A model generated the notes under the pieces. That model was not told the DNA's origin and did not search any database. It saw only the letters and a list, made by a program, of their open reading frames with translations. A stretch of DNA of 64,000 nucleotides from an uncultured Planctomycetales bacterium (GTDB lineage: Bacteria > Omnitrophota > Gorgyraeia > Zapsychrales > JANLHA01): assembly GCA_964489065.1 (NCBI GenBank), contig CAZAXH010000001.1, positions 155,460 through 219,459 of the forward strand, read 5' to 3'. Every line of letters begins with the position of its first letter. The first letter of the stretch is position 1. The position numbers were made by a program, and so were the translations under genes. Below are positions 4,258 through 42,661 of this stretch, one piece after another.

Positions 4258-6585
4258 TTATTTGATTTTCAGGAATCCTTGCATTTCAATAAGTTTAGCC
4301 CCGACATTCACCTTGGCCGAAAACGTAAGGATCTGCGCGACGGCCTGAATGAGCGGCTTAATGAAGCCCTGCGCCACATCTTCCCTCTGTTCCGCCGTCA
4401 ATATTTTCCGGGAATCCATCTCGGTGAGCAAGGCTTCCAACTCGGTCTGGGTTTCTATCCCGGTTTTGATATCAGCCTGCAGCCGTTCAATCTCCGCTGT
4501 TTTTTCCGCAACGGTCTGGTCTATTTTGGCTTTCTTCTTATCCACAGAGGTAAGATCCTCCCGCTGGTTCACGAACGCCTGCTTTTCTTCTTTCAAGGAA
4601 TCCATCTTCGTCTGTTTCTTTTTAATGCTGTCCTGAATAAACTTCAAACGGGCCAACCCTTCCGGCGGCAGTTGAAAATTTTCGTCTTCCTGAACCGCCT
4701 TAAGTTGACGCTCTTCCTCAAGATCAGGCTCGAGGGTTTTTTCCAAATTTTCCAAAAATTTATCTATCCGGTCAATCTCCTTATTGACCTTCTCCACTTC
4801 TTCAGGGCGCTCCACAATCGCTTCTTTCTGTTCCTTCAGGGTTACGATCTCCATTTCCAGACTGGTCACCCGATCCTTGTCGGAAACAATCTCCGAGATC
4901 ACATCCTCCATCCTTTTCTCTGTTCCATCACGAAAAGCTTTCTGTTTGGCAATCTGCTGATCCGCCCACCCCAGGCTCCATTCCAGCAAAGCATCAGCCT
5001 TCTGGGCAATCTTCTCCACGTTGAAAAAAACCACCGCATTGTTCTTCCCGGACAGGCCTAAATCCGGCTGTTGAAAATCCGGCTGCTGCAGGATCGAAGG
5101 CTTTTCACCTGCCTGTGTCTCCAGGGCCTGCTTGATCAAATCCCGGCTGGTCGCTACAATCAAATATTCATTCACAAAAGAATAAGACGGCTCCAAATTC
5201 CCCACCATGGGGATCTTAAAGTAATTGATGTCTTCTCCCCGAACCATTTCGGTTTCCGCCCGGACAAAAGGTTGTTGGGCAATCAGGCCTTGAATCATAG
5301 TTTTAACTTTTTCCTTGTCCGCGGTCTTAATATAAAAAGCCCCTTGCGGAACAGGGACAAGCTGGTCGATCGAAACATCCGTCCAAAACCCTCCCAACTC
5401 CCGGCCCAAAGCAGGAATAACATCATTTTTAATACTAATCCCAAGCCCCTCTTCCAACCCGGAAAGCAACTCCTGTGGATCGGCCTGAACGCCTTTTGCC
5501 AGCAAGGCATCCCCCATTTTCTCAGGGGCCTGCTGCCAATAATAATCCAAGTTATAACAAGGACTCCACTGATACGCCAGCACGTCTTGCGGGATGAACT
5601 GAAGTGTCGCGTTCTCTTGAGGTTCACACTCATACAACGGCCTGACATCCGGATCAAGCGACTGCCGGTCGTAATGGATATCAAACTTCAACCGTGTTTG
5701 AGGACCGGACAGGGCAGAAAAACTCATCAGCTGAAATCCCTTGGCCTGCCTGAAGCTCTCCTCCACCTGCTTTTGAAGCAAGTCACTGTTTTCCTCGTTA
5801 GCGGCGAGCCAGTTGGTGAGTTGATCCTTAAGGTCCCCTACAAGTCCGGCGAAATTCATATACCCCAAGAAATCCGCCTCCGCCTCAGAATGTGAACTCA
5901 CCAGGAGATAATCCGTGTCCTCTTTCAGCGCCACACCCTGCTGTTTATAAATATCAATACAGCGGCGGGCCGCCTGATCATTAATACCCACCACCAGAAG
6001 GTCCCTAATCCGTGTATACCCGATTTTAAAAGGCGCGCCCTTCACCGAAATCAAATAAATCTTGTTTTTCTCATAATTGACTTCTTCCACGCTAATATTC
6101 GGATCTATCCGTCCCAGCAGACCGGAGAATTTTTCCGCGAACTTCAGTTCCGGTTTAAGCCGGGTGACCACAAAGGTCTGAGAAGCGACATTCATGGCAT
6201 TTTGGGGCTCAAGGCTGTTTTCCGCCCCCGGATAAATAACCAGGACGACTTCTTTCCCTAAAAACGTTTTGACAAAAACTTTCATTTCTTCTGAGAACAG
6301 CTGTTTTTTAAGGGTGCTATAACGTTCTATGGACTTTTCATCCACACCCGTTTCTTTCAGGTATTTTATATAATCAATCCCTTTTAAAATCTGCCAAAAC
6401 CGGGTTTGCGAAAACCCATCCAGATTCTGTTCGATATTTTTCATGCGGACATAAATAAGCGGCTGCGCAGGCAGAATCGACTCCACGGCCAAGGGAGGAC
6501 GTGTTTTTTGCCAAAACATAAATATCCCACCGGCCAGCAGGGCAATAACGACAAGGATTAAAACCACAAACAAAACTTTTTTCAT
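4258..6585 (-). CDS. hypothetical membrane-anchored protein (775 aa) with a long C-terminal coiled-coil region
   Basis: N-terminal TM. C-terminal 250 aa rich in E/K/Q heptad-like sequence. AAGGAAGGGAG RBS. Confidence 0.5.
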
Positions 6586-6682
6586 GACTTTCTAACTCCC
6601 TTCCTTAAACAAGAATCCCTCAAATTCATCACCAAACCCTAAATAATTATACATAAAAAATTTATAAATAAAAGACTGATTA

Positions 6683-7450
6683 TTATAAGGCAAAAAACCG
6701 GCGGGCGTTTTGGTTTAAAATCTCCGCGGCCGCTTCTTTCGGTAAATTTCTTAGCCGGCAAACCCATTCCAGGGTTATCAGGACATCTTTGGGGGAAGCG
6801 ATAAAACCAGGGCCGTCATCCCCCCCGTTACGGTAAAATACCGGGCTGTCTGTTTCAATAAGCAGCCGGTCTAAAGGAGTAGCCCGGACAACGGCTTGTG
6901 ACGGCTGACTATAAGAAAGGCTCGGTGAGCATGACACGTAATACCCTTGCGCGAGGATCAGGTTCAACACATCTAAAGGCCCGCTGTACCAATGAAAAAC
7001 CGCTTTCTGAATACCCTCGTCCCGGGCCATATCCAGGCTCTCCTGCCAGGCGCCTCGGGAATGAATGACAGCCGGCAGGTCCCTCTCTTTTGCCGCCTGC
7101 AGCATCCGGAGGAAAACCGCCTTTTGTTTTTCTTTAAGGGCGGGCTCTTTCTTCACCCATGGATACCAAAAATCCAGGCCGATTTCTCCGATCGCCACCG
7201 CCTCCTTGATATGCTCCTGAATAAACTCCAAGCACGGCCCCGGGTCCTGGCGGTGCACGCGGTCAGGATGAAAGCCAAAGCCAGGGTAAATCCTGGGACG
7301 GGAAACAGATTGGCTTATATGTAAATTCTTCTGGTTAGAGACAAGGTCTTCCCCCACCGCAATAACGGCCGTGACCCCGGCCCGTACGGCGGCCGCTAAA
7401 ACCTCGGGGAGATTTTCGACATGATCCAAATGCGCGTGGGTATCAATCAT
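6683..7450 (-). CDS. tatD: TatD-family metal-dependent hydrolase
   Basis: [10 protein letters not shown] start and GEIGLD motifs. ATG at 7450 lies 3 nt from the dtd stop. Confidence 0.85.
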
Positions 7451-7925
7451 CTTGAACGGTTTGCTCCCTCCCTCCGCCGAGCCCTTCCCGGCTGTCGAGG
7501 ATAAAAGTAACCGGACCGTCATTCAACAGCGTGACGTCCATCATGGCCCGGAACCGGCCGCATTCAACTTTAAAACCCTGGGCCCGCAACTGTTCCACAA
7601 AACGGTTATAAAAAATTTCTCCCTGAGCCGGATCCGCCGCCTTGTCAAACGACGGGCGGCGTCCTTTCCCGCAGTCGCCCAGCAACGTGAACTGGGACAC
7701 CACCAGGAATTCCCCGGAGACGTCCCCGGCAGACAGGTTCATCTTGCCGGAGGTGTCCTCAAACATCCTTAAATGCGAGACCTTCCGGACCAAATACAAA
7801 ATATCCCCCTCCGCGTCCCCCCTGGCCACGCCTAAAAATATCAGCGCACCCTTGCCGATCGACCCCACGCGTTGGCCTTCGACGTCCACACGGGCATATT
7901 TCACTCTCTGTATGACAATTTTCAT
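7443..7925 (-). CDS. dtd: D-aminoacyl-tRNA deacylase
   Basis: SQFTL and NDGPVT motifs. Length is typical. Confidence 0.9.
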
Positions 7926-8133
7926 AATATTGATATTAAATAATTTTATTGATTATAGTAACCCCTGCCGGACTGGTCAACTGAATAATGCGATGAACCC
8001 GCGGGGGAAATAATCAAATTTCTTCCCTATTTACTAACAAAAAAAATTATGACAAAATAAGCTGTAAAAAACAGCTGTGCGCCGATGAATGGGATCCTTA
8101 TACCGGGTCCGAAGAAGGACGCGGGCCATTGTT

Positions 8134-10296
8134 ATGACTATCGAAAAAATTTTTTCCAAATACAAATTTCCGGAAGAATTAAAAAACATCTTTATTCATA
8201 CGGGAATCCACGCGCTGTATCCTCCGCAGGCCCAGGCCATCGAGGCCGGCGCCCTGGACGGCCGGAATATCCTGCTGTCTGTCCCGACCGCGGCCGGGAA
8301 AACTTTGGTGGCGGAACTCTGCATGCTGCGCTCGCTCTTATCGGCCCCGGGGCGCTGCCTTTATATCGTGCCTTTAAAAGCCCTGGCCAATGAGAAATAC
8401 GAGGACCTGAAAAAAAAGTATTCTTCCGTGGGGATCAAGGTCGGCGTGGCCACCGGAGACACCGACATCCCTAACGACATCTTAAGCGGATACCACATCC
8501 TTATCGCCACAGCCGAAAAAATTGATGCCCTTCTGCGGGCCCGCACACAATGGCTCCTCAACCGTCTTAATGTCGTGGTCCTGGATGAGATCCATTTTCT
8601 GAACGACCAGGAACGCGGCCCGACGTTGGAAATCCTGACGGCCCGCATCAAACAACTGAATCCCAAGGTGCAGTTCCTCGCTTTGAGCGCGACGATCAGC
8701 AACGCTCCGGACATCGCGGCGTGGCTCGGCGCCCAGCTCGTCGAGAGCCACTGGCGGCCCATCCCGTTGCGGGAAGGCATTTATTGGAACGAAAAAATTC
8801 TCTTTAACCGCGGGCCCAGCCGCCTTATCCAGGGGACGGGGCCCGACCTGAACAAACTCGCGGACGATACCCTGCGCGGAAAAGGGCAAATGCTCGTGTT
8901 CACCAACTCCCGCCGTTCTTCGGAAGCCGCCAGCCGGCTGTTATGTTCAACGGCCGGAGTATTCCTGTCGGAAAATGAGCGCCGGACGCTGACCCGGCTG
9001 GCGGAAATCCTGCGCGGCCCCGAAAGCAGCATGACGCGGATATGCCGCAGGCTCGGCGATACGGTTGAGCACGGAGTGGCGTTCCACCACGCCGGGCTCA
9101 AACCCGAGCAGCGGAAACTGATCGAAGAAAATTTTAAAAACGGCCTGTTAAAAATCATCTGCTCTACCCCCACGCTGGCGGCCGGCGTCAATCTGCCAGC
9201 CCGGCGGGCAGTCATCCGGGACGTCAAACGGTTCGAAGGCGGCCTAGGGGCGAGCTTCATCCCGGTCTCCGAATACAAGCAATGCGCCGGCCGGGCCGGC
9301 CGGCCGCAGTATGACGAATTCGGGGAATCGGTCCTCATCGCCAAAACGTCGGGAGAGGCCAAGGCCCTGATGGATCGGTATATCAACGCCCGCCCGGAAC
9401 CCGTCATCAGCCGGCTCGGGTCAGACAGCGCCCTGCGGACCCATATCCTCGCCTCCATCGCCGGAGATTATGTCCACGATATCAATGACACTTTTGATTT
9501 CATCTCCCACACGTTCCTGGCCCATCAAAAACGGCCCCTCAATCTGATTGAAATGATCGGCCATGTTTTTGATTTCCTTCAGGAAGAAGATTTCATCGAA
9601 AAGCAGGGGTTCCGATTTTTCGCGACGCCGTTCGGCCAATACACCAACCGGCTTTACATTGACCCGGCTTCCAGCATCATCCTCCGGGACGGCCTGCATA
9701 AAATCGCCAAAGGCAAATCGTTTTCCAATATAGGGCTGCTGCACCTCACCTGCTGCTGCCCCGATAGCCCGCTTTTAAGAAACTGGAAAAGCCAGTGGGA
9801 AGAAATCGAGGCCTTTGCCTACAACTGCCAGGACGAAATTATCCTCCAAGAAGAGGATTTCCCCATGCTGACCGATATGGGCCTCCATATGGCCATCATG
9901 AAAACGACAATGATGCTCTGCCGCTGGATCGACGAAGAAAGGGAAGAAAAAATCTGCGATGATTTCAATATCGGCCCGGGAGACATCTACCGGCACCTCG
10001 AGGCCGTCCAATGGTTGCTTTACGCGGCCACCACCTTTGCGGAACTTTTTCAGTACAAAAAACTCACATTTCTGTTATCCAATTTAAGAAGCCGCGTCAA
10101 ATACGGGATTAAAGAGGAGCTGATCTCCCTGTCCCATCTCAAGGGAATCGGCCGGGTCCGCGCCCGCCTCCTTTATGAAAACGGCTACAAACACGCCACT
10201 GACCTGAAATCCGCCTCGGTCGAAGATTTGGCCAGAATTGACAAAATCAACCTCCCCCTGGCCCGGGATATCATCAATCAAGTCAGCCGTCCCTGA
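8134..10296 (+). CDS. Hel308/Ski2-like superfamily-2 DNA helicase with C-terminal helix-hairpin-helix domain
   Basis: Walker A AAGKT, DEIH box, STPTLAAGVNLPA motif VI region, and C-terminal HLKGIGRVRARLLYENGY HhH. The ATG at 8134 is preferred over the ORF-track start at 8089. Confidence 0.8.
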   Translation: MTIEKIFSKYKFPEELKNIFIHTGIHALYPPQAQAIEAGALDGRNILLSVPTAAGKTLVAELCMLRSLLSAPGRCLYIVPLKALANEKYEDLKKKYSSVGIKVGVATGDTDIPNDILSGYHILIATAEKIDALLRARTQWLLNRLNVVVLDEIHFLNDQERGPTLEILTARIKQLNPKVQFLALSATISNAPDIAAWLGAQLVESHWRPIPLREGIYWNEKILFNRGPSRLIQGTGPDLNKLADDTLRGKGQMLVFTNSRRSSEAASRLLCSTAGVFLSENERRTLTRLAEILRGPESSMTRICRRLGDTVEHGVAFHHAGLKPEQRKLIEENFKNGLLKIICSTPTLAAGVNLPARRAVIRDVKRFEGGLGASFIPVSEYKQCAGRAGRPQYDEFGESVLIAKTSGEAKALMDRYINARPEPVISRLGSDSALRTHILASIAGDYVHDINDTFDFISHTFLAHQKRPLNLIEMIGHVFDFLQEEDFIEKQGFRFFATPFGQYTNRLYIDPASSIILRDGLHKIAKGKSFSNIGLLHLTCCCPDSPLLRNWKSQWEEIEAFAYNCQDEIILQEEDFPMLTDMGLHMAIMKTTMMLCRWIDEEREEKICDDFNIGPGDIYRHLEAVQWLLYAATTFAELFQYKKLTFLLSNLRSRVKYGIKEELISLSHLKGIGRVRARLLYENGYKHATDLKSASVEDLARIDKINLPLARDIINQVSRP

Positions 10297-10398
10297 CTCC
10301 GGACAGCTATCCGGCCCAAGCATTGCGATATTTATCGTTGATCCCCGGGACAGAGCACGATAGAATTGATACAACATATTTTTTAAAAATTCTTTAAA

Positions 10399-12060
10399 AT
10401 GACGACACGCCTAAAAAACATCCAGCCCTTCAGCCCTGCGATAGCGTTCCTAGTGGCTTTCTGCCCGCTGTGTTACATGCTCCTGATCGCATCCCGGCTG
10501 TCAAAAATTTTCGGAGAGGACCTCTTCGTCTTTCCAACTGTGACCGCCCTTTTCATTCTTTTCCTGGGGTTGGGTAGCACGTTCCGGCACGCCCGGTCTC
10601 CGGGTCCGGAGGCCGGCGAAAAAGTCATATGGCTCGAACTGGGGCTGACATTCTTAGGGTTCTTCTGCGTCCTGGGCATTGATGCCTTTCTGTTTGATTC
10701 CCTGTCCGTTATTAACCTGGAGGCCGGCGTTATCGGGCTGGGCCTGACCGCGGGCATCGGATTTTTAAGCGGACAAACCTTCGCGCTCTTTTATCATTCA
10801 TCGTCTCCCCTGTTTGAGAAAAACCAGAACCGGATTCTGGAAAAAGTTTCCGTACTGCTCGCTGCCGGCAGCGCTTCGCTCCTTTATGCAACCGTGTTTT
10901 CCCCGGCTCTGGGGGACATCAAAACGGCCATCCTGATTTCCTTTATAAATTTCCTGTTGACTGTCCGGCTGTTTTTAACCCAAGAAGAGCGGCCCCGGGG
11001 ACGGCTCTGGATTTCAGCCGGAGCTGTCCTGAGCGGATTCTTTATCGCCGTTTCCCTTTATAGCGACAGGATAGAGAACAGGATTCTTCAACGGGCCTAC
11101 CTGGGACGCCAACCGGCCCAGCTTATAACCAAAAATCAATCATCCTCCCAACGGATTTTACTCTACCTGGCCCGCAAAGACGGCTGGCCGATTGTGGAGA
11201 CACAGAAGGAAATCCTCTCCAAACCCAGCCAATATTTCATCCTGGGGATGACAAACGGATTTATGCAGTTTTCCCTCCCTTTCGAATCCCAGATGGACCC
11301 GGAGCATGTGTTTCTGTTCGACCCTTACATAACTCTGCTGCCCTATATCAAAAACATCCTCATCCTCGGGGGAGGGGACGGGCTGGCCGTCCGTCAGGCG
11401 GTCCAGTATAAATCCGTAAAAAACATCACCGTAGTGGAATCCGGGCCGGCCTGGGTGACCACGGTCAAGAATAACCCCTATTTACAGAAATTAACCCGTC
11501 ACGCCTTTGAGGATCCGCGCGTTAAAACCCATTTCATGGATCCCCTAAAATGGGTTTTACGGGACAGCAGGCGTTACGACCTCATTATTGTTAACGCCCC
11601 ACCGGGTGGGACAAGGAATTTAATAAAAATAAAAACCCTTAGCGTTCAATTCCTCCGGGACCTCAAACGCTTGGTTTCAAAACACGGAATGATTATCCTC
11701 ACATCCTCCCGCACGGTGTCGTCTCCATCCAAAATTTCTGTTCAAGCGCGAACGGCCTGGGAAGCCGGCCTGACGGCTCTAGTAGGAACCTATGGCGGAA
11801 AAAAAGGCGCCTGGGGCAAAACGGAACAACTCGTCCTTTTCCATTCAGAAAAGACCCTCGCCTCTTTTCTGGATAGTTATAAAAAAGACTATTTGCCCCG
11901 CTTAAAATACGGGCGGAAAGACTTGGCCAAGTTCGGGATCATAACCTACTCCCTGCCCAGCCCGGCAGACCAATACCTCAGTGTCTATGACCCGTTTATT
12001 TCAAAGTTGCCGTTTAAAACAAAACTTAAACTCATAATGGAAGACTATGCCTCCCCCTAA
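10399..12060 (+). CDS. spermidine-synthase-family (aminopropyltransferase-like) domain fused to a polytopic membrane domain
   Basis: Multiple N-terminal TM helices. C-terminal ILILGGGDGLAVRQAV...VVESGP...DLIIVNAPPG polyamine-aminopropyltransferase fold motifs. Confidence 0.65.
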   Translation: MTTRLKNIQPFSPAIAFLVAFCPLCYMLLIASRLSKIFGEDLFVFPTVTALFILFLGLGSTFRHARSPGPEAGEKVIWLELGLTFLGFFCVLGIDAFLFDSLSVINLEAGVIGLGLTAGIGFLSGQTFALFYHSSSPLFEKNQNRILEKVSVLLAAGSASLLYATVFSPALGDIKTAILISFINFLLTVRLFLTQEERPRGRLWISAGAVLSGFFIAVSLYSDRIENRILQRAYLGRQPAQLITKNQSSSQRILLYLARKDGWPIVETQKEILSKPSQYFILGMTNGFMQFSLPFESQMDPEHVFLFDPYITLLPYIKNILILGGGDGLAVRQAVQYKSVKNITVVESGPAWVTTVKNNPYLQKLTRHAFEDPRVKTHFMDPLKWVLRDSRRYDLIIVNAPPGGTRNLIKIKTLSVQFLRDLKRLVSKHGMIILTSSRTVSSPSKISVQARTAWEAGLTALVGTYGGKKGAWGKTEQLVLFHSEKTLASFLDSYKKDYLPRLKYGRKDLAKFGIITYSLPSPADQYLSVYDPFISKLPFKTKLKLIMEDYASP

Positions 12061-15792: not shown

Positions 15793-17112
15793 TTATAAAT
15801 GCTCCACGGCCAGAGACGCGAGCTTGGACCGCTCACTCTGGGTTAAAAGAACATGTCCGAATAAATTAAATTTTTTGAGACGCTCCACCACGTACGCCAG
15901 GCCGTTGGAATTGGCGTCCAGATACGGGTTATCAATCTGGGCCGGGTCACCAGTCAGGACAATTTTTGTCCCTTCCCCGGCGCGGGAAATGATCGTCTTG
16001 ATTTCATGAGGCGTCAGATTCTGCGCCTCATCCACGATAAAAAATTGATTCGGAATGCTCCGCCCGCGGATATACGTCACCGCGTCAATCTCGATTAACT
16101 CCGACTTATGCAAATTATCCAGCGTCAGGTCGCTGGTCGACCAGTCTTTATTTTGTGCATTCATGGATTGTTTCAGCAGAAAGACAAGGTTATCAAAAAT
16201 CGGCTGCATCCAGTAATTGAGCTTTTTCTCCTTGGTCCCGGGGAGATACCCCAGGTCTTTGCCCAACGGGACAATCGGCCGGACGACAAGCAGTTTTTCA
16301 TAAACCGGATGCCTGGCGAGGATCTTTTCCAGGGCCGACGCCAAAGCCAGCAGGGTCTTGCCGGTCCCCGCCTGCCCGACCAGCGTGACTAATTTGATCC
16401 GGTCATCCAGCAAAAGGTCCAGGGCGACCCTTTGCTCGACATTCAAAGGGACGATGCCCATAACATTGCAGGCGGCCGGGAGCGCGCACAAGGCGTCCTC
16501 TGCGTCATCATATTTACACAAAACCTGCGCGTCCGGATCTTTTTGAGCGGACACCAGGGCGTATTCATTGCAGTTAAAATGAAGGCCTTTGGGTTTCAGC
16601 GTCTGCCCCTGCCGCAATTTCTGAATATCCCGCTTCGGCAGAACAACCGGCTTCCACCCTTTATACAGAGTTTCATATTCGACCTTTTCCTTCTCATAAT
16701 CCGCCGACCGGATCCCCAGGGCTTCCGCTTTAATGCGGGCGTTCACATCTTTTGAAATAAAAAAAACCGTTTCCCCCCGCTGCTGCAGGTCCCAGGCCAC
16801 GCTTAAAATCTTGTTATCATTAATATTGGCGTCCAAATGGGGGAACTCCTCCGGCGGAGCGCCCAGGGAAACCACCAATACGCCCCGGTTGGGCATCTTG
16901 GAGCCCTGTTTTAACGCGCCGTGCTTAATGTGGATATCAATCTCCCGCAACACCTGGCGGGCGTGCATTCCTTTTTTATCGACGCTGTTTTTCAAATTAT
17001 CCAGCTCTTCGATAACCGTGATGGGAATGACCACCTTATTATCCGCAAACGAATACAGGGCCATCGGGTTATGAATCAAAACATTGGTGTCCAGCACAAA
17101 AATTTTTTTCAT
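15793..17112 (-). CDS. PhoH2-type protein: N-terminal PIN domain fused to PhoH-like ATPase
   Basis: VLDTNVLIH PIN acidic motif. GQAGTGKT Walker A. Conserved PhoH C-terminus. Confidence 0.85.
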   Translation of the reverse strand: MKKIFVLDTNVLIHNPMALYSFADNKVVIPITVIEELDNLKNSVDKKGMHARQVLREIDIHIKHGALKQGSKMPNRGVLVVSLGAPPEEFPHLDANINDNKILSVAWDLQQRGETVFFISKDVNARIKAEALGIRSADYEKEKVEYETLYKGWKPVVLPKRDIQKLRQGQTLKPKGLHFNCNEYALVSAQKDPDAQVLCKYDDAEDALCALPAACNVMGIVPLNVEQRVALDLLLDDRIKLVTLVGQAGTGKTLLALASALEKILARHPVYEKLLVVRPIVPLGKDLGYLPGTKEKKLNYWMQPIFDNLVFLLKQSMNAQNKDWSTSDLTLDNLHKSELIEIDAVTYIRGRSIPNQFFIVDEAQNLTPHEIKTIISRAGEGTKIVLTGDPAQIDNPYLDANSNGLAYVVERLKKFNLFGHVLLTQSERSKLASLAVEHL

Positions 17113-29358: not shown

Positions 29359-29784
29359 TTATTTCTCCCAAACCTCCGGAGCCATGCTCCCCGGGCTGTT
29401 GAATTCCACGCGATAAGGCTCAATGAGCATAAGCGCGTAATTCGGGTCTTCCGGCCCGCTGAACACGGCCGAAAGCATTTCAAACCAATAACGGTTCTTC
29501 TCCTGCTGATCCGTCGTTATGCTCGCCGTCCCCTGAATCTGAACATACGGCTTATCCATGTCCCGGGGGTCGTTTATCCCGAAGGTCAGGTGCACTTCCG
29601 GATTTTTCTCGATCTGTTTTACTTTCCTGGATTCCAGGCAGACCGCCGAACGGATATTAAAATTTTCGTCAGCGCTGATCATGACATAACGGGTCCAGGG
29701 CTTCCCATCCAGGGTAATCGTCGCGAGGCTGGACAACTGCGGTGTTTTCAAGAGTTCAATAACTTTTCGTTTAACGTCTGACAT
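29359..29784 (-). CDS. pyridoxamine 5'-phosphate oxidase-like (general stress protein 26) family FMN-binding protein
   Basis: LKTPQLSSLATITLDGKPWTRYV PNPOx-like split-barrel N-terminus. GGAGGG RBS. Confidence 0.7.
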   Translation of the reverse strand: MSDVKRKVIELLKTPQLSSLATITLDGKPWTRYVMISADENFNIRSAVCLESRKVKQIEKNPEVHLTFGINDPRDMDKPYVQIQGTASITTDQQEKNRYWFEMLSAVFSGPEDPNYALMLIEPYRVEFNSPGSMAPEVWEK

Positions 29785-29835
29785 TTTCCCTCCTTAATTA
29801 AACATTCTTCTTACACGATATAACAGCGCAAAAAA

Positions 29836-31011
29836 TTATATTTCATCGTCCAACACGAGGTTCTTGATAATGACATCCCCCGCGGCCCATTCCGCGTCCC
29901 AGGCGGCGACAGGGGCTTCAAAAATAATTTGAAACAATGTCCCGGTCCGGTCATTGGCCACCAAAGAATGAAATATCCTGACCGGCTCCATCCCCGGCGA
30001 ATTCTCGACATATTGATAAAGGCAGCCCCAAAACGGCCCCTTCGGGCCATGCTCCCGCCTTTCAAGTTTATACCGGCTTTGAACTTCATCGGCCATGGCT
30101 TCCGCGAATTGCGACGGCAGAACACGGCCCTGCGGCTGCGTGGCGACATTTTGAAAAGATATAAATGTCAGGCCGGTTTGAAAATGGCCCTGCTCATCGG
30201 CATTTTCCTTGCTGACAGCCCAAATCTTTTTATCCCCCAGGTCCTGATGATTGACATGCCAGCCCTTCGGGGCAAGGATGGCGGCCTTGATCTCCTCCAT
30301 TTTGAGCCATTGAAACCCATTGGGCGGAGGGGGCAGTTGAGCCAGAAAAGAGTCAAGGGCCGTCGCGTCCCGTGCCGCTTGGGGCGACGGCTTAAGTTGC
30401 GATGCTTTCGGCGCGGCGCCCGCCTGCCCGCCTAACGATATCGTGATATCCTTCCCCTGGCTGTCTTTTAACCTGACGGAGAACTCTTCTATTTCAACGA
30501 TCTTGCAGCCGGCCACCTCATCACCGACGCCTGCCACTTCGCCGTTGATCACGGCCATGGCCGGGTCCCCCAAACTGACGCCTTCCAGCACCAATTTATT
30601 TTTAAAAAAGCCGGGGTCGCGCTTTTTAATTTCCGGCTTTTTAATTCCAGGTTTCTTTGCCGCAGATTCTTGATACGCCTTAACGACCTGGTCCATGGGA
30701 GGCCGGATAAAAATTTTCCCGTTCACGTCCAACACCGGCAATTCATAGCGCGAGGTGTCAAGCCCCGCCTTTTCCATGCGGCTATGCAAGACATCGGCCG
30801 TCGCCGGGTCGTCAATATCTTTCGAATAAGAGCGCATGCTCAAAGCGCTGATGTCCTGCCGGTATTTTTGGGTATATCCGCAGGCTTCCCGCCCGTAAAC
30901 CGCCACGTAAGGCGGCGGATAAAGCGGTTCTAGCTGGCTGCGGCTGCGGGCAAAATAATAAGCCCCGGCGCCGGCCGCGATAATAAGGATGCCGATAAAA
31001 ATATTTTTCAT
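29836..31011 (-). CDS. hypothetical membrane-anchored periplasmic protein with a GspB/PilP-like beta domain
   Basis: N-terminal TM. AVINGEVAGVGDEVAGCKIVEIEEFSVRL resembles the C-terminus of the 62455-63018 protein. Confidence 0.45.
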   Translation of the reverse strand: MKNIFIGILIIAAGAGAYYFARSRSQLEPLYPPPYVAVYGREACGYTQKYRQDISALSMRSYSKDIDDPATADVLHSRMEKAGLDTSRYELPVLDVNGKIFIRPPMDQVVKAYQESAAKKPGIKKPEIKKRDPGFFKNKLVLEGVSLGDPAMAVINGEVAGVGDEVAGCKIVEIEEFSVRLKDSQGKDITISLGGQAGAAPKASQLKPSPQAARDATALDSFLAQLPPPPNGFQWLKMEEIKAAILAPKGWHVNHQDLGDKKIWAVSKENADEQGHFQTGLTFISFQNVATQPQGRVLPSQFAEAMADEVQSRYKLERREHGPKGPFWGCLYQYVENSPGMEPVRIFHSLVANDRTGTLFQIIFEAPVAAWDAEWAAGDVIIKNLVLDDEI

Positions 31012-31026
31012 GGGTTCCTTTCGGGA

Positions 31027-32190
31027 TTACGGTTCGCTGATCTTGAACCAGATTGGATTCGAGCACAAAGAACCGGCATATTGGGCTTTGACATAAATGG
31101 TATCCGGCTCCTTCAATAATACGGGCATCCGCGACAGAACCGCCCCATGAAACCGCAGGATCAGGTTGCCGCCCCTCCGCTGGATTTCCTTAAGGTACGG
31201 CTCTTCTAAATCTTCTCGGAGGATTTCCCCGGTGAGCCGGTATTCATAAACGCCCTCCGGCTCAAGCGGCACCCGGTGCTCAACATCCTCCTCCCCCTGA
31301 ACAGGCCTCACGATAAAGGCCTTGTCCTTGCCGTCCGTCAGCCGCACCATGCGCCGCAGCACATCGCTTTCCTTAAACGCCAATTCAACCCGGCTCCCGC
31401 CCGCGTTATGCCACCGCAATGTCAGCGCGACCTGATCCCCCGCCTGATACGCGTCCTTATCGGCGGAAAGGCCCAGGGTTAACCCGGGCTGAAGGTTCCG
31501 GCAATAAAGTATGCCCGGCGAGGCCCCGAGAATACTTTGCAGGTTCGACACCTCGATCGGGAAATTGGAAGAAGGGCAATCCCGGCCGGCGCAACACGGC
31601 GCCGCTTCCGAGAGGATTTCCAGGGCGGTGACCGCCTCGTCACCCAAACGCTGATAAAATTCCCGCGCCAGCTTTTTATTTTTCTCATCGCCGCCCGAAT
31701 AAAAATCCAGTCGGTTGAACACGTCCATGGCCAGGCGACGCAGGGCGTAAACGCGGATCATTTCCTCCCCGCGGGCCAGGGCCTGCCGCATGTCCGGGAT
31801 TTTTTCCGCCTTTGTATACGGATAGGCCAGGACAAAAATATCGGTCCGGCGGTGATTCTCGAACACAAGCACCAGGCTGTCATCCTGCCCTAAAAACATA
31901 TTGGCGGCGATATTCTCCCGGTAGTTCTTCCGCATGATATCCTGCCCGGCAGAGGACACCAGAGAATATCTTGTGTAAAGGGTGTCTGTAAAATACCCGT
32001 CCCCACACCCGTAACTTTTCACTTTCTTCTCCTGATGAAGAGAATACGCCTCCCCCCGGGAGTTGGTGACGGTTCCGGCGTTAGATTGAACCAGGGTCAC
32101 CCGCACATCATAATACAGCCCCAGCATGTACGCGCATCCGCACGCGCCCAAGCAAACGGCGAGCAGCCAGGGGATTTTTCTTTTAATCAT
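31027..32190 (-). CDS. hypothetical lipoprotein; ATG overlaps the stop of the upstream 42-aa ORF (ATGA)
   Basis: MIKRKIPWLLAVCLGACGC lipobox. Confidence 0.5.
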   Translation of the reverse strand: MIKRKIPWLLAVCLGACGCAYMLGLYYDVRVTLVQSNAGTVTNSRGEAYSLHQEKKVKSYGCGDGYFTDTLYTRYSLVSSAGQDIMRKNYRENIAANMFLGQDDSLVLVFENHRRTDIFVLAYPYTKAEKIPDMRQALARGEEMIRVYALRRLAMDVFNRLDFYSGGDEKNKKLAREFYQRLGDEAVTALEILSEAAPCCAGRDCPSSNFPIEVSNLQSILGASPGILYCRNLQPGLTLGLSADKDAYQAGDQVALTLRWHNAGGSRVELAFKESDVLRRMVRLTDGKDKAFIVRPVQGEEDVEHRVPLEPEGVYEYRLTGEILREDLEEPYLKEIQRRGGNLILRFHGAVLSRMPVLLKEPDTIYVKAQYAGSLCSNPIWFKISEP

Positions 32191-32315
32191 GAATTAGACC
32201 TTTCAGGGGTGGACGAAATTTGGTTCTTAGGCTTCCCGTCCAAGGTAACCGTCGCAAGGCTGGACAACTGCGGTGTTTTTAACAAATCAATTACTTTTCG
32301 TTTAACGTCTGACAT
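32187..32315 (-). other. 42-aa ORF: duplicated 5' end of the PNPOx-family gene (27/29 aa identical) with 13 unrelated residues, translationally coupled to the downstream lipoprotein gene
   Basis: MSDVKRKVIDLLKTPQLSSLATVTLDGKP versus MSDVKRKVIELLKTPQLSSLATITLDGKP at 29698-29784. About 88% nt identity over about 95 nt including the CCTCC RBS. Differences are mostly synonymous. Confidence 0.6.
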
Positions 32316-32423
32316 GCCCCCCTCCTTGGTTTCCTATACCCGACACAAAATACTTCCCAGGGCCGCACAGGCGGCCGGCGGCCGAAGGTAGCGGAGCGCC
32401 CCTAATGTTGTTATAGGATTAGT

Positions 32424-33143
32424 CTATCTTTCTAAATCCTTAATATATTTTTTTGCCAGTTTATCGCATTCGGCTATTAACCGATTAGGAAAATTTTCTA
32501 GCCCGCTATCCGTAGAAGCATATATCAATGTAAAATTTTCAGGTAAGAAGAATTGAGTATCTATCGGCGATTCTCTTGAATTATATTTTTCAATATTTCC
32601 ATAATCTGAATCCACAATTATTGCAATCTTAAAATTGTCCCTATATTCCTTTTGATGAATGATATCCTTAATGAGTTCCCGCCAATTAGTCTTTTCAGTT
32701 ACATCGGGATTATTTTTAAAACAAATCGGACCCCTCATTAATAGTTCACGAGTCGATGGTTTGTATTTTACACAATAACATACAGAGATAAGGTCACCGT
32801 TGACTTCTTTCGAATTTGTATCTATTGCATATATATAGTCAAACTGGTTTAAATAATCGAGTGTTAAATCATTGGGATCTATAGATATATCATACAAAAT
32901 CTTTGGCCCCTTGCTTCTGTCATACCATTTTCTTAATAATGCTCGTAAAGGATGGGCTTTTATACCATTAGTTTTAAATTCTATTTTACCTTTTGGCCCA
33001 ATAGTCAATCCATTGATAACAGTTGGGGTTCCCATATCTACCGAAATGCTTTCGTGCCGCGATTTTTTATTCATACAACACTTTTTATATTTCATGCCAC
33101 TGCCACATGGGCACAATGCATTTTTATTTATTTGTTTATCCAT
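32424..33143 (-). CDS. SEC-C zinc-motif protein with C-terminal putative metal-dependent nuclease-like domain (low-GC island gene 3)
   Basis: N-terminal CPCGSGMKYKKCC SEC-C motif. Downstream strand/acidic pattern YIYAIDTN...IAIIVDSDYG...LIYASTDSG. AT-rich codon usage. Start is at ATG 33143 or GTG 33179. Confidence 0.55.
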   Translation of the reverse strand: MDKQINKNALCPCGSGMKYKKCCMNKKSRHESISVDMGTPTVINGLTIGPKGKIEFKTNGIKAHPLRALLRKWYDRSKGPKILYDISIDPNDLTLDYLNQFDYIYAIDTNSKEVNGDLISVCYCVKYKPSTRELLMRGPICFKNNPDVTEKTNWRELIKDIIHQKEYRDNFKIAIIVDSDYGNIEKYNSRESPIDTQFFLPENFTLIYASTDSGLENFPNRLIAECDKLAKKYIKDLER

Positions 33144-33214
33144 ATTTTGTCTATAACATCCAAGCTCACCTGCTGCCACACGCGCAGCGGGTGGCCGTCA
33201 GGTGAAGCGCGTTG

Positions 33215-33766
33215 TTATGAGTCACTTTCAAAACCTATTATATTTTTATAATTTTTTACCATGTCACAAACGACAAACAAAATCAAAATTACGCCAAGAA
33301 AATGAGGTATCTTCAAACCAACTCCAACACCTATTGCTCCCGCCAAAAGATTACCCAAAGTTCCGATTAGCCATCTATGTAATGTATAAGAAGCAATTTT
33401 ATTCTTGGCTCCTATATATTCAACGTCATTAATATTTTCAATTCTTTCTGGAATCCTCATAATAGCGGTCCAGGTCTGCCATTTTGATGCTAATTTAAAA
33501 GTCAACCAACCTGCAATCAATTCTGGTTTCCCACAAGCAAAAGAAATATAAGAAAACAATGCCTCAAATATTCCTAATATCTGATTAGTTTTAATTGTAT
33601 ATTCGAATGCTTCTTCCCATATTTTGGGGTCAATATTACTTGGAGGATGAAAATTCTTAACTTTCTCAATTTTTTTCATCAACCAGTTTACGGCTCTAGA
33701 AGCAAACCACATAGCGCACAACCCAAACACAAAATTCCATAATTGAAAAATATCTTCAAGTTTCAT
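33215..33766 (-). CDS. hypothetical multi-pass membrane protein (low-GC island gene 2)
   Basis: 4-5 predicted TM helices. GAGGGAAG RBS. Confidence 0.55.
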   Translation of the reverse strand: MKLEDIFQLWNFVFGLCAMWFASRAVNWLMKKIEKVKNFHPPSNIDPKIWEEAFEYTIKTNQILGIFEALFSYISFACGKPELIAGWLTFKLASKWQTWTAIMRIPERIENINDVEYIGAKNKIASYTLHRWLIGTLGNLLAGAIGVGVGLKIPHFLGVILILFVVCDMVKNYKNIIGFESDS

Positions 33767-33816
33767 TATTCACTTCCCTCATAACGCAAAGTTCACTCGC
33801 CAGAAGCCGTGTCCAG

Positions 33817-34449
33817 TCAGGCGCGGGTTCCGGTCGAGTGTAACGGCTCGTTAGGTCTTATTATTACGGTTTCACAGTTCAGGCTGACATCATTTTTCTT
33901 ATATGAACCTAATCCAATGCCGCTCAGCAACCATTTAGTAGTGCTTTTATCTAATGGAGTGCCTCTGCCTTTGAAACCACGCAAATCACCAAATGGTTTA
34001 AATCCAGCTGTCTTATCAAGTTCTTTATTCATTGATTCCGCATAATCGAGAACATCTGAAATTGCCCTTCGTATGTTGGCATCCGATACATTTTTCCCAT
34101 GAATAACTTTATCTCGAATTCTTTCGGCCTCTTTAATTAGAGAAGTTGTTTCTTTGGGTAATTGAGAACCAAATATATTTTTGTATAATTCTAGAAATCC
34201 TTCACGCGTCATATGGTGTGAATTAATAATATTCGAGGCAATTTCAGCGTGGGCACGATGCAATTTTACTACTCCACAATATATTGTTCTGTTTTGAGCC
34301 TTTTCTGTTTGAAGAAAGATGTATGCTAAGTTTACCTCGTAAGGACAATTTTGTATCAAATTTGGTAGGTGTTCAAAAAAAAATTTTACATCTTCTGTGC
34401 ACGACTCATATTTCTTAAGAATTCCTTTATAAGATGCTGGATCAGTCAT
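33817..34449 (-). CDS. hypothetical protein with HEPN-like Rx4HG motif (low-GC island gene 1)
   Basis: EAERIRDKVIHGKN matches the Rx4-6H HEPN catalytic motif in a helical context. GGAG RBS before ATG 34449. TATAAT-containing promoter-like AT-rich region upstream, around 34560-34590. Confidence 0.5.
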   Translation of the reverse strand: MTDPASYKGILKKYESCTEDVKFFFEHLPNLIQNCPYEVNLAYIFLQTEKAQNRTIYCGVVKLHRAHAEIASNIINSHHMTREGFLELYKNIFGSQLPKETTSLIKEAERIRDKVIHGKNVSDANIRRAISDVLDYAESMNKELDKTAGFKPFGDLRGFKGRGTPLDKSTTKWLLSGIGLGSYKKNDVSLNCETVIIRPNEPLHSTGTRA

Positions 34450-34789
34450 AAATTGTTTCTCCGAACAATTCTTTAACGCCCCATCCATTTGCTGGTAAGC
34501 TTTGTTGCTTAGCGCTGGAATAATTTAATTTTTGCCCTGATTTTTTATTATTATAGCCCTGTTTTTTATAAAATGGTATCCATTTGCCCTGTAATATCAC
34601 TTATACGGAACGTCGTATATCAGGGGTTTTTGTTCATGTCCTGTATCAAATCATAAAGTCAGTCTTTGGAAAGCTGAAAAAAGTTATTTTTATTATACTT
34701 CAATTTATCAAAAAATCCCCGCTTTAACCCCATTTTCTAAACATCAGGGCCGCCTTCCTTATTATTAATATTCGTCGTCCGGGATAAGC

Positions 34790-41704: not shown

Positions 41705-42661
41705 TCAAGCGACAGCCCCGCTGCGGCTGTACGCCTCGATAATCCTCTGCACCAGTTCATGGCGGACCACGTCCGCAGAGGTCAGCTCGACGAATTTGAT
41801 CCCTTCAATCCCTTCCAGAATTTTCCGCGCGTGAACCAGGCCGATTTCCTTTCCCGGAGGCAGGTCGCTTTGCGTGATGTCCCCCGTAATCACGGTCTTG
41901 GAATCAAACCCCAGGCGGGTTAAAAACATTTTCATCTGAAACGGCGTGCTGTTTTGAGCTTCGTCAAGGATCACGAAGGCGTCGTTCAAGGTGCGGCCGC
42001 GCATAAACGCCAAAGGCGCCACCTCAATAATCCCCTGTTCGGTGTATTGCTCCACCTTGTCGGGATCCATCATGTCATACAGGGCGTCATACAAGGGGCG
42101 CAAATACGGGAGGACTTTTTCGATCATGTCGCCGGGAAGGAACCCCAGGCTCTCTCCGGCCTCGATCGCCGGGCGGGTCAGAATAATCCGGCGGACCAGC
42201 CCTTTCTTCAAAGCGTTGACCGCCATGGCCATCGCCAGGTAAGTTTTTCCGGTCCCCGCCGGCCCGATGCCGAAAACAATATCGTAACGCTTGATAGCCT
42301 CGATATACTCAATCTGTCCTTTGGTTTTCGGGGTGACCAGCCCCCCTTTGGTAGGGACTTCGATCTTGCCTTTGGACAGAAGCTTAAGGTCCACGCCCTG
42401 TTCGGGTTTGCTTAACTGCAGCGCGTAAAAAATATCCCGTTTCTTCAGCTCCCGCCCGTCGGCAGCAATACCGAGCAAATAATCCATCAGCTCGTGGACC
42501 TTCTGCACCTGATCTTTCTTGCCGATCACCTTCAAACCGCTGTCATCCCGGACCAGGCGCACATCCAACTCATGCTCAATCAACCGCAGATTCTGGTCAT
42601 ACGGGCCGCACAGGACCTGCATGTCCCGGATGCTGTTTAAATAGAAGATCTTTTCCATCAC
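41705..42661 (-). CDS. phoH: PhoH-like ATPase (YbeZ)
   Basis: GPAGTGKTYLAMA Walker A. KH-like N-terminus. Confidence 0.9.
   Translation of the reverse strand: MMEKIFYLNSIRDMQVLCGPYDQNLRLIEHELDVRLVRDDSGLKVIGKKDQVQKVHELMDYLLGIAADGRELKKRDIFYALQLSKPEQGVDLKLLSKGKIEVPTKGGLVTPKTKGQIEYIEAIKRYDIVFGIGPAGTGKTYLAMAMAVNALKKGLVRRIILTRPAIEAGESLGFLPGDMIEKVLPYLRPLYDALYDMMDPDKVEQYTEQGIIEVAPLAFMRGRTLNDAFVILDEAQNSTPFQMKMFLTRLGFDSKTVITGDITQSDLPPGKEIGLVHARKILEGIEGIKFVELTSADVVRHELVQRIIEAYSRSGAVA

Follow-up and report, generated by a model that had tools for sequence, protein, structure and literature searches.

Near the middle of a 64,000-nucleotide stretch of a Candidatus Omnitrophota chromosome (contig CAZAXH010000001.1 of assembly GCA_964489065.1; hereafter the window), a low-GC block of three genes, g1, g2 and g3, is very probably a short array of integron-type cassettes with no integrase (a CALIN, in which attC sites are grouped but an integron-integrase is missing) in a strain-variable hotspot, and not one defence system; we put the probability of this reading at roughly 0.85. 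The original prediction for this DNA had proposed that the block is one three-gene HEPN/membrane/nuclease defence or abortive-infection module. It had missed two attC sites, which are imperfect palindromes of small size and high GC content (0.58-0.59), one following the stop region of g1 and the other following g2. As these sites lie between the genes, and homologues of the three co-occur in no other locus examined, the module was not upheld. The overall interpretation in the original prediction is partly supported, and its domain guesses were largely right.

The block spans approximately 32400-34750 and, as had been proposed, is real and sharply delimited. Its GC content is 0.33-0.40 in the GC profile, versus 0.53-0.61 in both flanks, and the GC content at third codon positions is 0.27-0.28 for g1, g2 and g3 versus 0.63-0.74 for four neighbouring genes; the composition of g1-g3 is foreign. 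Three open reading frames (ORFs) are present, co-oriented as predicted, and all are on the minus strand. Together with the two attC sites, they are arranged as follows, in the order of transcription.

33817-34449, minus strand: g1, a 210-residue HEPN-like protein
33779-33856, plus strand (the folding "bottom" strand): attC1, gene strand ACCTAAC...GTTATGA, GC content 0.58
33215-33766, minus strand: g2, a 183-residue hydrophobic protein of a rare family with no known domain
33151-33220, plus strand (the folding "bottom" strand): attC2, gene strand TCATAAC...GTTATAG
32424-33143, minus strand: g3, a 239-residue protein that has a SEC-C zinc motif at the N terminus, a beta-rich middle and a predicted RNase H-like domain at the C terminus

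Two sites in the block have the layout and predicted fold of integron attC sites

attC sites are imperfect palindromes. When their bottom strand folds, it forms an R box and an L box, the latter with extrahelical bases, and leaves a spacer between the two unpaired; it is this folded bottom strand that integron integrases use as their substrate. Both attC1 and attC2 have the R''...R' layout typical of integron attC sites. attC1 stands directly 3' of g1 and attC2 directly 3' of g2, in the orientation seen at 34 of 34 significant sites of g1-family loci, and the R' core of attC2 ends 7 nt ahead of the g3 ATG. Folding of the plus strand as DNA gave z = -4.7 for attC1 and z = -3.4 for attC2, each fold consisting of a terminal 5-6 bp stem (R), an internal loop of 4-5 nt and a longer L stem, with single-base bulges on the 3' arm only. 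In reference sites from loci of g1 and g2 homologues the bottom strand has a constant plan: xxxxAAC is separated by a 5-6 nt spacer from the L' arm of 12 nt, a variable loop leads on to the L'' arm, and a 5-nt spacer and GTTxxxx come last. The L'' arm comprises 3 bp, a bulge, 6 bp, a second bulge (almost always T) and 3 bp. Compared with this geometry, each window site forms 11 of the 12 L-box pairs; the bulges are T and T in attC1 and A and T in attC2, whose spacers are 6 and 5 nt long. As in the reference sites, the two bulges are 6 bp apart on the same arm and the distal one is T. Both positions show the structural hallmarks of attC, namely AAC/GTT cores in the R box, a central spacer that stays unpaired, and extrahelical bases on the '' arm of the L box.

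We then used covariance models trained on other loci to search the window. Since MAFFT could align neither attC sites at full length nor trimmed ones whose spacers differed in length, the first model (R1; alignment A5) was built from 11 non-window attC sites that share one geometry and were trimmed at the centre. In the whole window, searched with filters off, it matched 33152-33219 best (27.8 bits, E = 1.1e-4), followed by 33784-33851 (14.8 bits, E = 0.19). R1 also recovered 28 sites in g1-family loci, many of them outside the training set; in every case the strand was the one that a cassette pointing the same way as the g1 homologue should have. In the alignment of these 28 sites, which was fitted to the model and so leans towards the structure, 93.7% of pairs were standard and compensatory changes occurred at 15 of 19 pairs; none of 500 shuffles scored as high. 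A second model (R2; alignment A6), built from those 28 sites of unrelated metagenomic arrays and containing no window sequence, was run against both strands of the 64 kb. Its two best matches, both full-length and on the plus strand, were 33151-33220 (38.9 bits, E = 1.3e-6) and 33779-33856 (31.0 bits, E = 7.9e-5).

The third match to R2 (16 bits, E = 0.2) lies at 1631-1750 on the minus strand, inside an unrelated TPR/M50 peptidase gene; it has a very long loop and is most likely a chance match. Simpler searches were less discriminating: an attC finder based on regular expressions and pairing was not specific (10 matches in the window versus 2-10 in shuffled sequence), and a scan for the reference geometry at 10 of 12 pairs was noisy.

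Palindromes of this kind might also be generic hairpins, such as terminators or REP-like (repetitive extragenic palindromic) repeats, in an ordinary horizontally acquired islet unrelated to integrons. Such an islet would be compatible with the absence of an integrase among the 40 window ORFs scanned, with the imperfect R' cores, and with the lack of attC features in a hairpin after g3 and in the cargo of a sister genome described below. However, neither site has a T-tract and a terminator scan reported none at either position. Both fit a sequence-plus-structure model of independent attC sites far above anything else in 128 kb of searched strand, and both show an asymmetry that is specific to attC (a 5-6 nt and a 5 nt spacer, two same-arm bulges 6 bp apart, and AAC/GTT cores). 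A sequence-only hidden Markov model of the L''-R'' half likewise ranked the two sites first and second, though with E = 0.27 and 0.85, and homologous genes elsewhere are accompanied by unmistakable attC sites. We consider it very improbable that the palindromes are generic hairpins.

The hairpin downstream of g3 is a further GC-rich imperfect palindrome.

32325-32423, minus strand: GC-rich imperfect palindrome after g3, CCTATAACAAC...GGTATAGG, DNA fold z = -1.4

It was rejected as an attC site on the basis of this fold and of its best R2 score, which was 2.3 bits even when the region was searched alone. It may be a decayed attC.

The three gene families are distributed independently

If g1, g2 and g3 formed one system, their homologues would be expected to travel together. 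tblastn detected no homologue of g2 or g3 in any of 74 distinct g1-family loci, of which 51 had at least 700 nt and 34 at least 1500 nt of downstream sequence. Likewise, it returned neither g1 nor g3 homologues from the two g2 loci, and from the closest g3 locus (L005/L006) neither g1 nor g2 homologues. In the comparison of g3 places (n = 5), the others (L088-L091, and the place of P0131, which comes without DNA) were assessed by gene tables only, and these listed no g1 or g2 family and neighbours of varied sizes and families. All-against-all clustering of the ORFs within 1.5 kb of g1 homologues yielded no family common to three or more of the 74 loci, and g3 relatives were solitary genes beside varied housekeeping or toxin-antitoxin (TA) genes. 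Because there is no co-occurrence, no recurrent neighbour of g1 and only solitary relatives of g3, the three families are independently distributed.

Many of the relatives are themselves integron cassettes. An attC site lies directly beside the g1 homologue in at least 15 of 73 cases (R2, E <= 0.01, default filters), and in many of 80 metagenomic g1-family loci attC sites directly follow the stop codon. The g2 homologue in locus L003 is part of a run of small co-oriented ORFs with a textbook attC after each, as in the example GCCTAAC AAATC GCTTGAGAT...ACCTCAGC TTTAGC GTTAGAT, and the site directly 3' of the g2 homologue itself is canonical (GCCTAAC...GTTAGAT, 56 bits). Two of the three families, those of g1 and g2, are demonstrably mobile as integron cassettes.

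The array in L003 (positions 5100-10950; Logan SRR7589087) has at least six attC-like sites, and its cassettes include an acetyltransferase and an AAA_33 kinase-like gene besides the g2 homologue. On one side it is bordered by an ArsP/thioredoxin cluster of the arsenic-resistance-like type and on the other by DsbD genes, and the 12.5 kb covered include no integrase. The other g2 locus, L004 (5480-6810), has a lone g2 homologue within a polysaccharide-biosynthesis cluster, where no attC was found; by eye, this gene adjoins a tRNA-like gene on the other strand and several hairpin repeats of the GGATTCCCG... type.

These distributions bear directly on the proposal that the block is one undescribed defence or abortive-infection operon, with g1 as HEPN RNase, g2 as membrane effector and g3 as SEC-C/RNase H-like nuclease, that was acquired as a unit. 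The genes are co-oriented and tightly packed, they have the same foreign composition and a single AT-rich leader, and the RNase H-like assignment holds, as does, with moderate confidence, the HEPN-like one. Defence genes are also known on integron cassettes (10.1101/2024.07.02.601686). Nevertheless, attC sites part g1 from g2 and g2 from g3; none of the other loci compared above combines any two of these families; no neighbour of g1 is conserved; and PADLOC matches are limited to the SEC-C motif of g3. The conserved co-occurrence that characterizes a multi-gene defence system was seen in no locus examined outside this genome, and we judge acquisition as a single operon to be highly unlikely. 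The juxtaposition of g1, g2 and g3 is best explained by the stacking of cassettes, and not by a functional operon. This corrects a tempting misreading, in that co-oriented, tightly packed, foreign nuclease-like genes can be unrelated integron cassettes stacked together and not a system.

The block resembles cassette arrays that lack an integrase

A CALIN, by definition, has two or more attC sites that share a strand and are separated by less than 4 kb, with no integron-integrase nearby (PMC4889954). The block falls under this definition because its two sites, as called by the self-made R2 model and not by attc_4 of IntegronFinder, are both on the plus strand, 559 nt apart, with no integrase nearby. 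A scan of 40 window ORFs, reaching at least 29 kb to each side, found no tyrosine recombinase (PF00589, Phage_integrase), with pseudogenes and the rest of the genome not searched, and the window contains no tRNA gene; the original prediction had likewise reported neither an integrase nor a tRNA in the flanks. The block is not a complete integron, with intI, attI and a Pc promoter beside the array, as the window ORFs include no integrase and the leader upstream of g1 has no attC-like match.

The resemblance to known arrays extends further. Two-site CALINs, the size of this block, are the commonest class (1362 of 2961 CALINs; 10.1101/2022.09.11.507474). As in CALINs and in the genome-inserted cassettes known as SALINs (single attC sites lacking integron-integrases; Loot et al., 10.1101/2022.09.11.507474), each attC in the block, with its same-strand partner and no intI nearby, follows a short, promoter-less-looking ORF of foreign composition. 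Unlike in those elements, an attC is missing from the third gene, the block belongs to an Omnitrophota metagenome-assembled genome (MAG), and the sites were called by self-made covariance models. A further difference is that the sister genome has cargo without an attC at the same hotspot, so that the segment as a whole is more than simple attC x attG insertion accounts for.

On the cassette-array reading, g1 and g2 would be separate gene cassettes that each end in their own attC, and g3 would have come to lie directly after attC2 without a recognisable attC of its own. The cassettes may have been assembled by integron-type recombination in some donor, or by an IntI acting in trans. Cassette stacking or recombination from AT-rich donors, and not selection as an operon, would then have joined the three genes, each of which would be expected to act alone, and the cassettes would now be carried without an integrase. 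Since integron cassettes usually lack promoters, any expression would be expected to come by read-through from the conserved AT-rich leader.

The probable cassettes occupy a strain-variable hotspot

The search of the species-representative genome collection yielded a single relative, the Candidatus Omnitrophota MAG JAGOJP010000013.1 (L007, the sister genome), and the hotspot was therefore compared in two genomes. By blastn the upstream flank (7.8 kb) and the downstream flank (5.8 kb) are 92-93% identical between them. Identity reaches window position 34466 on one side and resumes from 32194 on the other, with nothing alignable between, and in both genomes the variable segment is located between a NUDIX gene and a conserved 387-residue gene. 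The comparison defines three features.

32195-34465, minus strand: strain-variable cargo segment, comprising the low-GC block and a GC-richer tail, with conserved host sequence on either side (blastn against L007 and GC profile)
34466-34760, minus strand: AT-rich leader upstream of g1 (alignment A8), conserved in the sister genome apart from a 106-nt insertion
32187-32331, minus strand: duplicated 5' fragment of a host PNPOx-like gene at the distal end of the cargo, with a ribosome-binding site and approximately 32 codons that give a 42-residue ORF (32187-32315)

The corresponding segment of the sister genome (L007 7945-9996) holds approximately 2 kb of different cargo that is also low in GC: a 263-residue membrane protein, approximately 400 nt of non-coding sequence, and an 89-residue helix-turn-helix (HTH) protein followed by a 143-residue Doc/Fic-like toxin (HPFQNGNKR). 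Taken as a probable array, the block is a record, for Candidatus Omnitrophota, of cassettes bounded by attC sites at a place in the chromosome that varies between strains. Directly downstream of the hotspot in both genomes are two adjacent conserved genes of 391 and 387 residues, without a Pfam match (window 29836-32190).

At the leader end of the cargo, identity with the sister genome ends at ...CGTTAAAGAATTG, after which the window continues with TTCGGAG...ATG, the last being the start of g1, and the sister genome with ATGGGCA. At the left junction the window reads G|TT and the sister genome G|AT, a GWT-type site; G|TT opposite G|AT (GWT) is the product of IntI-mediated insertion into a genomic attG (10.1101/2022.09.11.507474). 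As the cargo is wholly different in the two genomes, one insertion does not account for this locus.

Even a search confined to the leader yielded no attC, and the leader matched no Rfam family. A short TAACAA...GTTAAAG element within it was considered as an attC and rejected by DNA folding and by covariance-model search. The block had been credited with its own promoter, and this could not be confirmed: promoter-like matches were not enriched over shuffled sequence, and the leader is mostly common to the sister genome, where it precedes other cargo. The 106-nt AT-rich insertion (approximately 34605-34710) is present only in the window copy of the leader and is positioned between the arms of an inverted repeat, 34556-34576 and 34730-34750 (21 nt, 86% complementary), that occurs in both genomes.

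At the other end of the cargo, the PNPOx-like duplicate (32230-32331) is 89% identical by blastn over 102 nt to L007 12389-12489, and it aligns to window 29700-29800. The intact PNPOx-like gene is 2.5 kb beyond the duplicate, and the sister genome has no duplicate; the fragment looks like the scar of some rearrangement or recombination.

Several of these results weigh against an integron origin of the block. Only two attC sites are detectable, and their R' cores, GTTATGA and GTTATAG, depart from the GTTRRRY consensus. The covariance models were made by us from centre-trimmed attC ends, with rough calibration, and are not the attc_4 model of IntegronFinder, and the integrase search covered the window ORFs only, the rest of the genome not having been searched for intI. 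The cassette status of g3 is inferred from its position, and R2 found no attC in the g3 loci searched (L005, L088-L091). The cargo of L007 also yielded no attC in the covariance-model search, so the hotspot itself is not an integron platform. Lastly, the lack of co-occurrence elsewhere does not strictly rule out a functional interaction of the three genes in this genome.

g1 is a probable HEPN-like protein of a widespread family

We identified 129 homologues of g1, of approximately 183 residues, in many phyla, all annotated as hypothetical proteins. The Rx4-6H HEPN motif that had been proposed for g1 is present (ERIRDKVIHGK), and R112-x4-H117 is invariant in 30 sequences of the family, as are E109, D113 and G118 (AExxRDxxxHGK, i.e., Rx4H). 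The family also has a strikingly conserved C-terminal motif, FKPFGDLRGFKGR..LDKSTTRW. In the window copy the stop codon of the family has been lost, and a 27-residue C-terminal extension reads into attC1 (33817-33897). Two metagenomic g1 homologues (L024 5001-5720 and L039 1242-1949) also read into an attC, with extensions that align with that of the window; the aligned extensions presumably reflect the conserved attC sequence itself.

The Pfam family HEPN_Swt1 matched g1 with E = 1.2e-5 to 1.3e-5 (25.9-26.1 bits, below the gathering score of 27.5) and matched 5 of 30 family members. An AlphaFold2 model of g1 was all-alpha (predicted local distance difference test score, pLDDT, 89.8). A Foldseek search of the model against the PDB gave nothing below E = 1, a PDB sequence-profile search found nothing, and unrelated helical bundles were mixed in among the matches that we weighed. 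With moderate confidence we regard g1 as HEPN-like, its nearest superfamily being HEPN (the Swt1-like HEPN PF18731 and the HEPN domains of HepT, Csx1/Csm6, AbiA and Roquin). We take g1 to be a putative HEPN-type RNase that works on its own, with a possible role as a toxin or as an effector of abortive infection. That it is instead the toxin of a HEPN/MNT-type TA pair, with g2 or a small upstream ORF as antitoxin, accords with the common pairing of HEPN toxins with antitoxins and with the HTH/Doc TA pair at the same site in the sister genome, but is scarcely credible given that no nucleotidyltransferase or other recurrent partner stands beside g1 homologues in the 74 loci, that g2 has no such domain and its homologues occur without g1, and that the upstream 52-residue ORF sits in the leader common to the sister genome, which has no g1.

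g2 and g3 encode a putative membrane protein and a putative nuclease

The family of g2 is rare, with five homologues found, and profile searches matched it to no known domain or family. Of the four to five transmembrane segments that had been proposed, a hydrophobic C-terminal part is borne out: a Kyte-Doolittle scan (19-residue window) was strongly hydrophobic only between residues 132 and 177, in the C-terminal third, and N-terminal segments at approximately 8-30 and 62-80 were weaker by eye. g2 is probably a small membrane protein.

For g3, 164 homologues of approximately 270 residues were found. The predicted SEC-C zinc motif is a significant Pfam match (PF02810, 36.1 bits against a gathering score of 20.4, E = 5.7e-9), and it was the only part of g3 to give PDB sequence-profile matches, to the C-terminal peptides of SecA and YchJ (E = 1e-6). 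The acidic residues that had been singled out (AIDTN, IVDSD) are also borne out by conservation, with D108/T109, E150, D178 and Y208/A209 invariant and D180 nearly invariant in 35 family members. An AlphaFold2 model (pLDDT 92.6) has a beta-rich middle followed by a b-b-b-a-b-a-b-a core. D108 is in the strand 103-114, E150 is the first residue of the helix 150-162 and D178 comes right after the strand 173-177; as placed by secondary structure, and not by measured geometry, the carboxylates agree with those of RNase H-like nucleases in lying on beta1, where alpha1 starts and where beta4 ends. On this model, g3 has an RNase H-like fold. The closest superfamily is the RNase H-like one (RNase HI, retroviral RNase H, RNase HII, the Argonaute PIWI domain, the UvrC C-terminal domain and EndoV), from which g3 differs in two ways: at the sequence level it matches none of the RNase H-like families of Pfam or NCBIfam, and it is a fusion with a beta-rich domain and, at the N terminus, a SecA-type SEC-C zinc motif. 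Proteins of this architecture are annotated only as "SEC-C domain-containing" or "YecA family" proteins. We propose that g3 is a putative metal-dependent RNase H-like nuclease with a SecA-type zinc knuckle.

A stand-alone defence role for g1 or g3 is conceivable

Each of the three proteins could, by itself, be a defence or toxin cassette. Compact anti-phage proteins are often encoded on integron cassettes, and one of them has only a HEPN-like domain (10.1101/2024.07.02.601686). That system, Esos of the V. cholerae sedentary chromosomal integron (SCI), resembles g1 by description only, in that g1 is a small, stand-alone HEPN-like protein and often a partnerless integron cassette. g1 may also be likened to the BRiCs (bacteriophage resistance integron cassettes) of mobile integrons, which are single-protein anti-phage cassettes (10.1101/2024.07.02.601719). 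Unlike Esos and the BRiCs, the g1, g2 and g3 families have no PADLOC system match, and their defence role is putative. Searches of PADLOC-DB 2.0 returned nothing for g1 or g2, and for g3 only the zinc-motif region, against the E2 and PDC-S12 models, which lends no support to the proposed defence module. NCBIfam gave no informative match and PHROGs none for the three proteins. A phage origin was rejected, as 2.9 million viral contigs held one relative of g1 and none of g3.

An individual defence role for g1 or g3 is plausible, if on balance unlikely. It is similarly tentative that the g1 family is a new single-protein abortive-infection or anti-phage RNase spreading as an integron cassette, with the g3 family as a second stand-alone nuclease effector and the window as a tiny "defence biobank". 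The features of g1 behind this suggestion are its small family size of approximately 183 residues, the invariant Rx4H, the unique conserved C-terminal tail, the lack of a partner, the occurrence in many phyla, and the position of at least a fifth of sampled copies beside an attC. Two uncharacterised and widely distributed families, the HEPN-like g1 (a frequent cassette) and the SEC-C plus RNase H-like g3, are thereby flagged as candidates for cheap single-gene screens of toxicity or phage defence.

The rest of the window consists of housekeeping genes, among them those for RecO, two tRNA synthetases, GroEL, GMP synthase, TatC and PhoH. There are two genes for PhoH-like ATPases (15793-17112 and 41705-42661), one of which is fused to an N-terminal PIN_4 domain.

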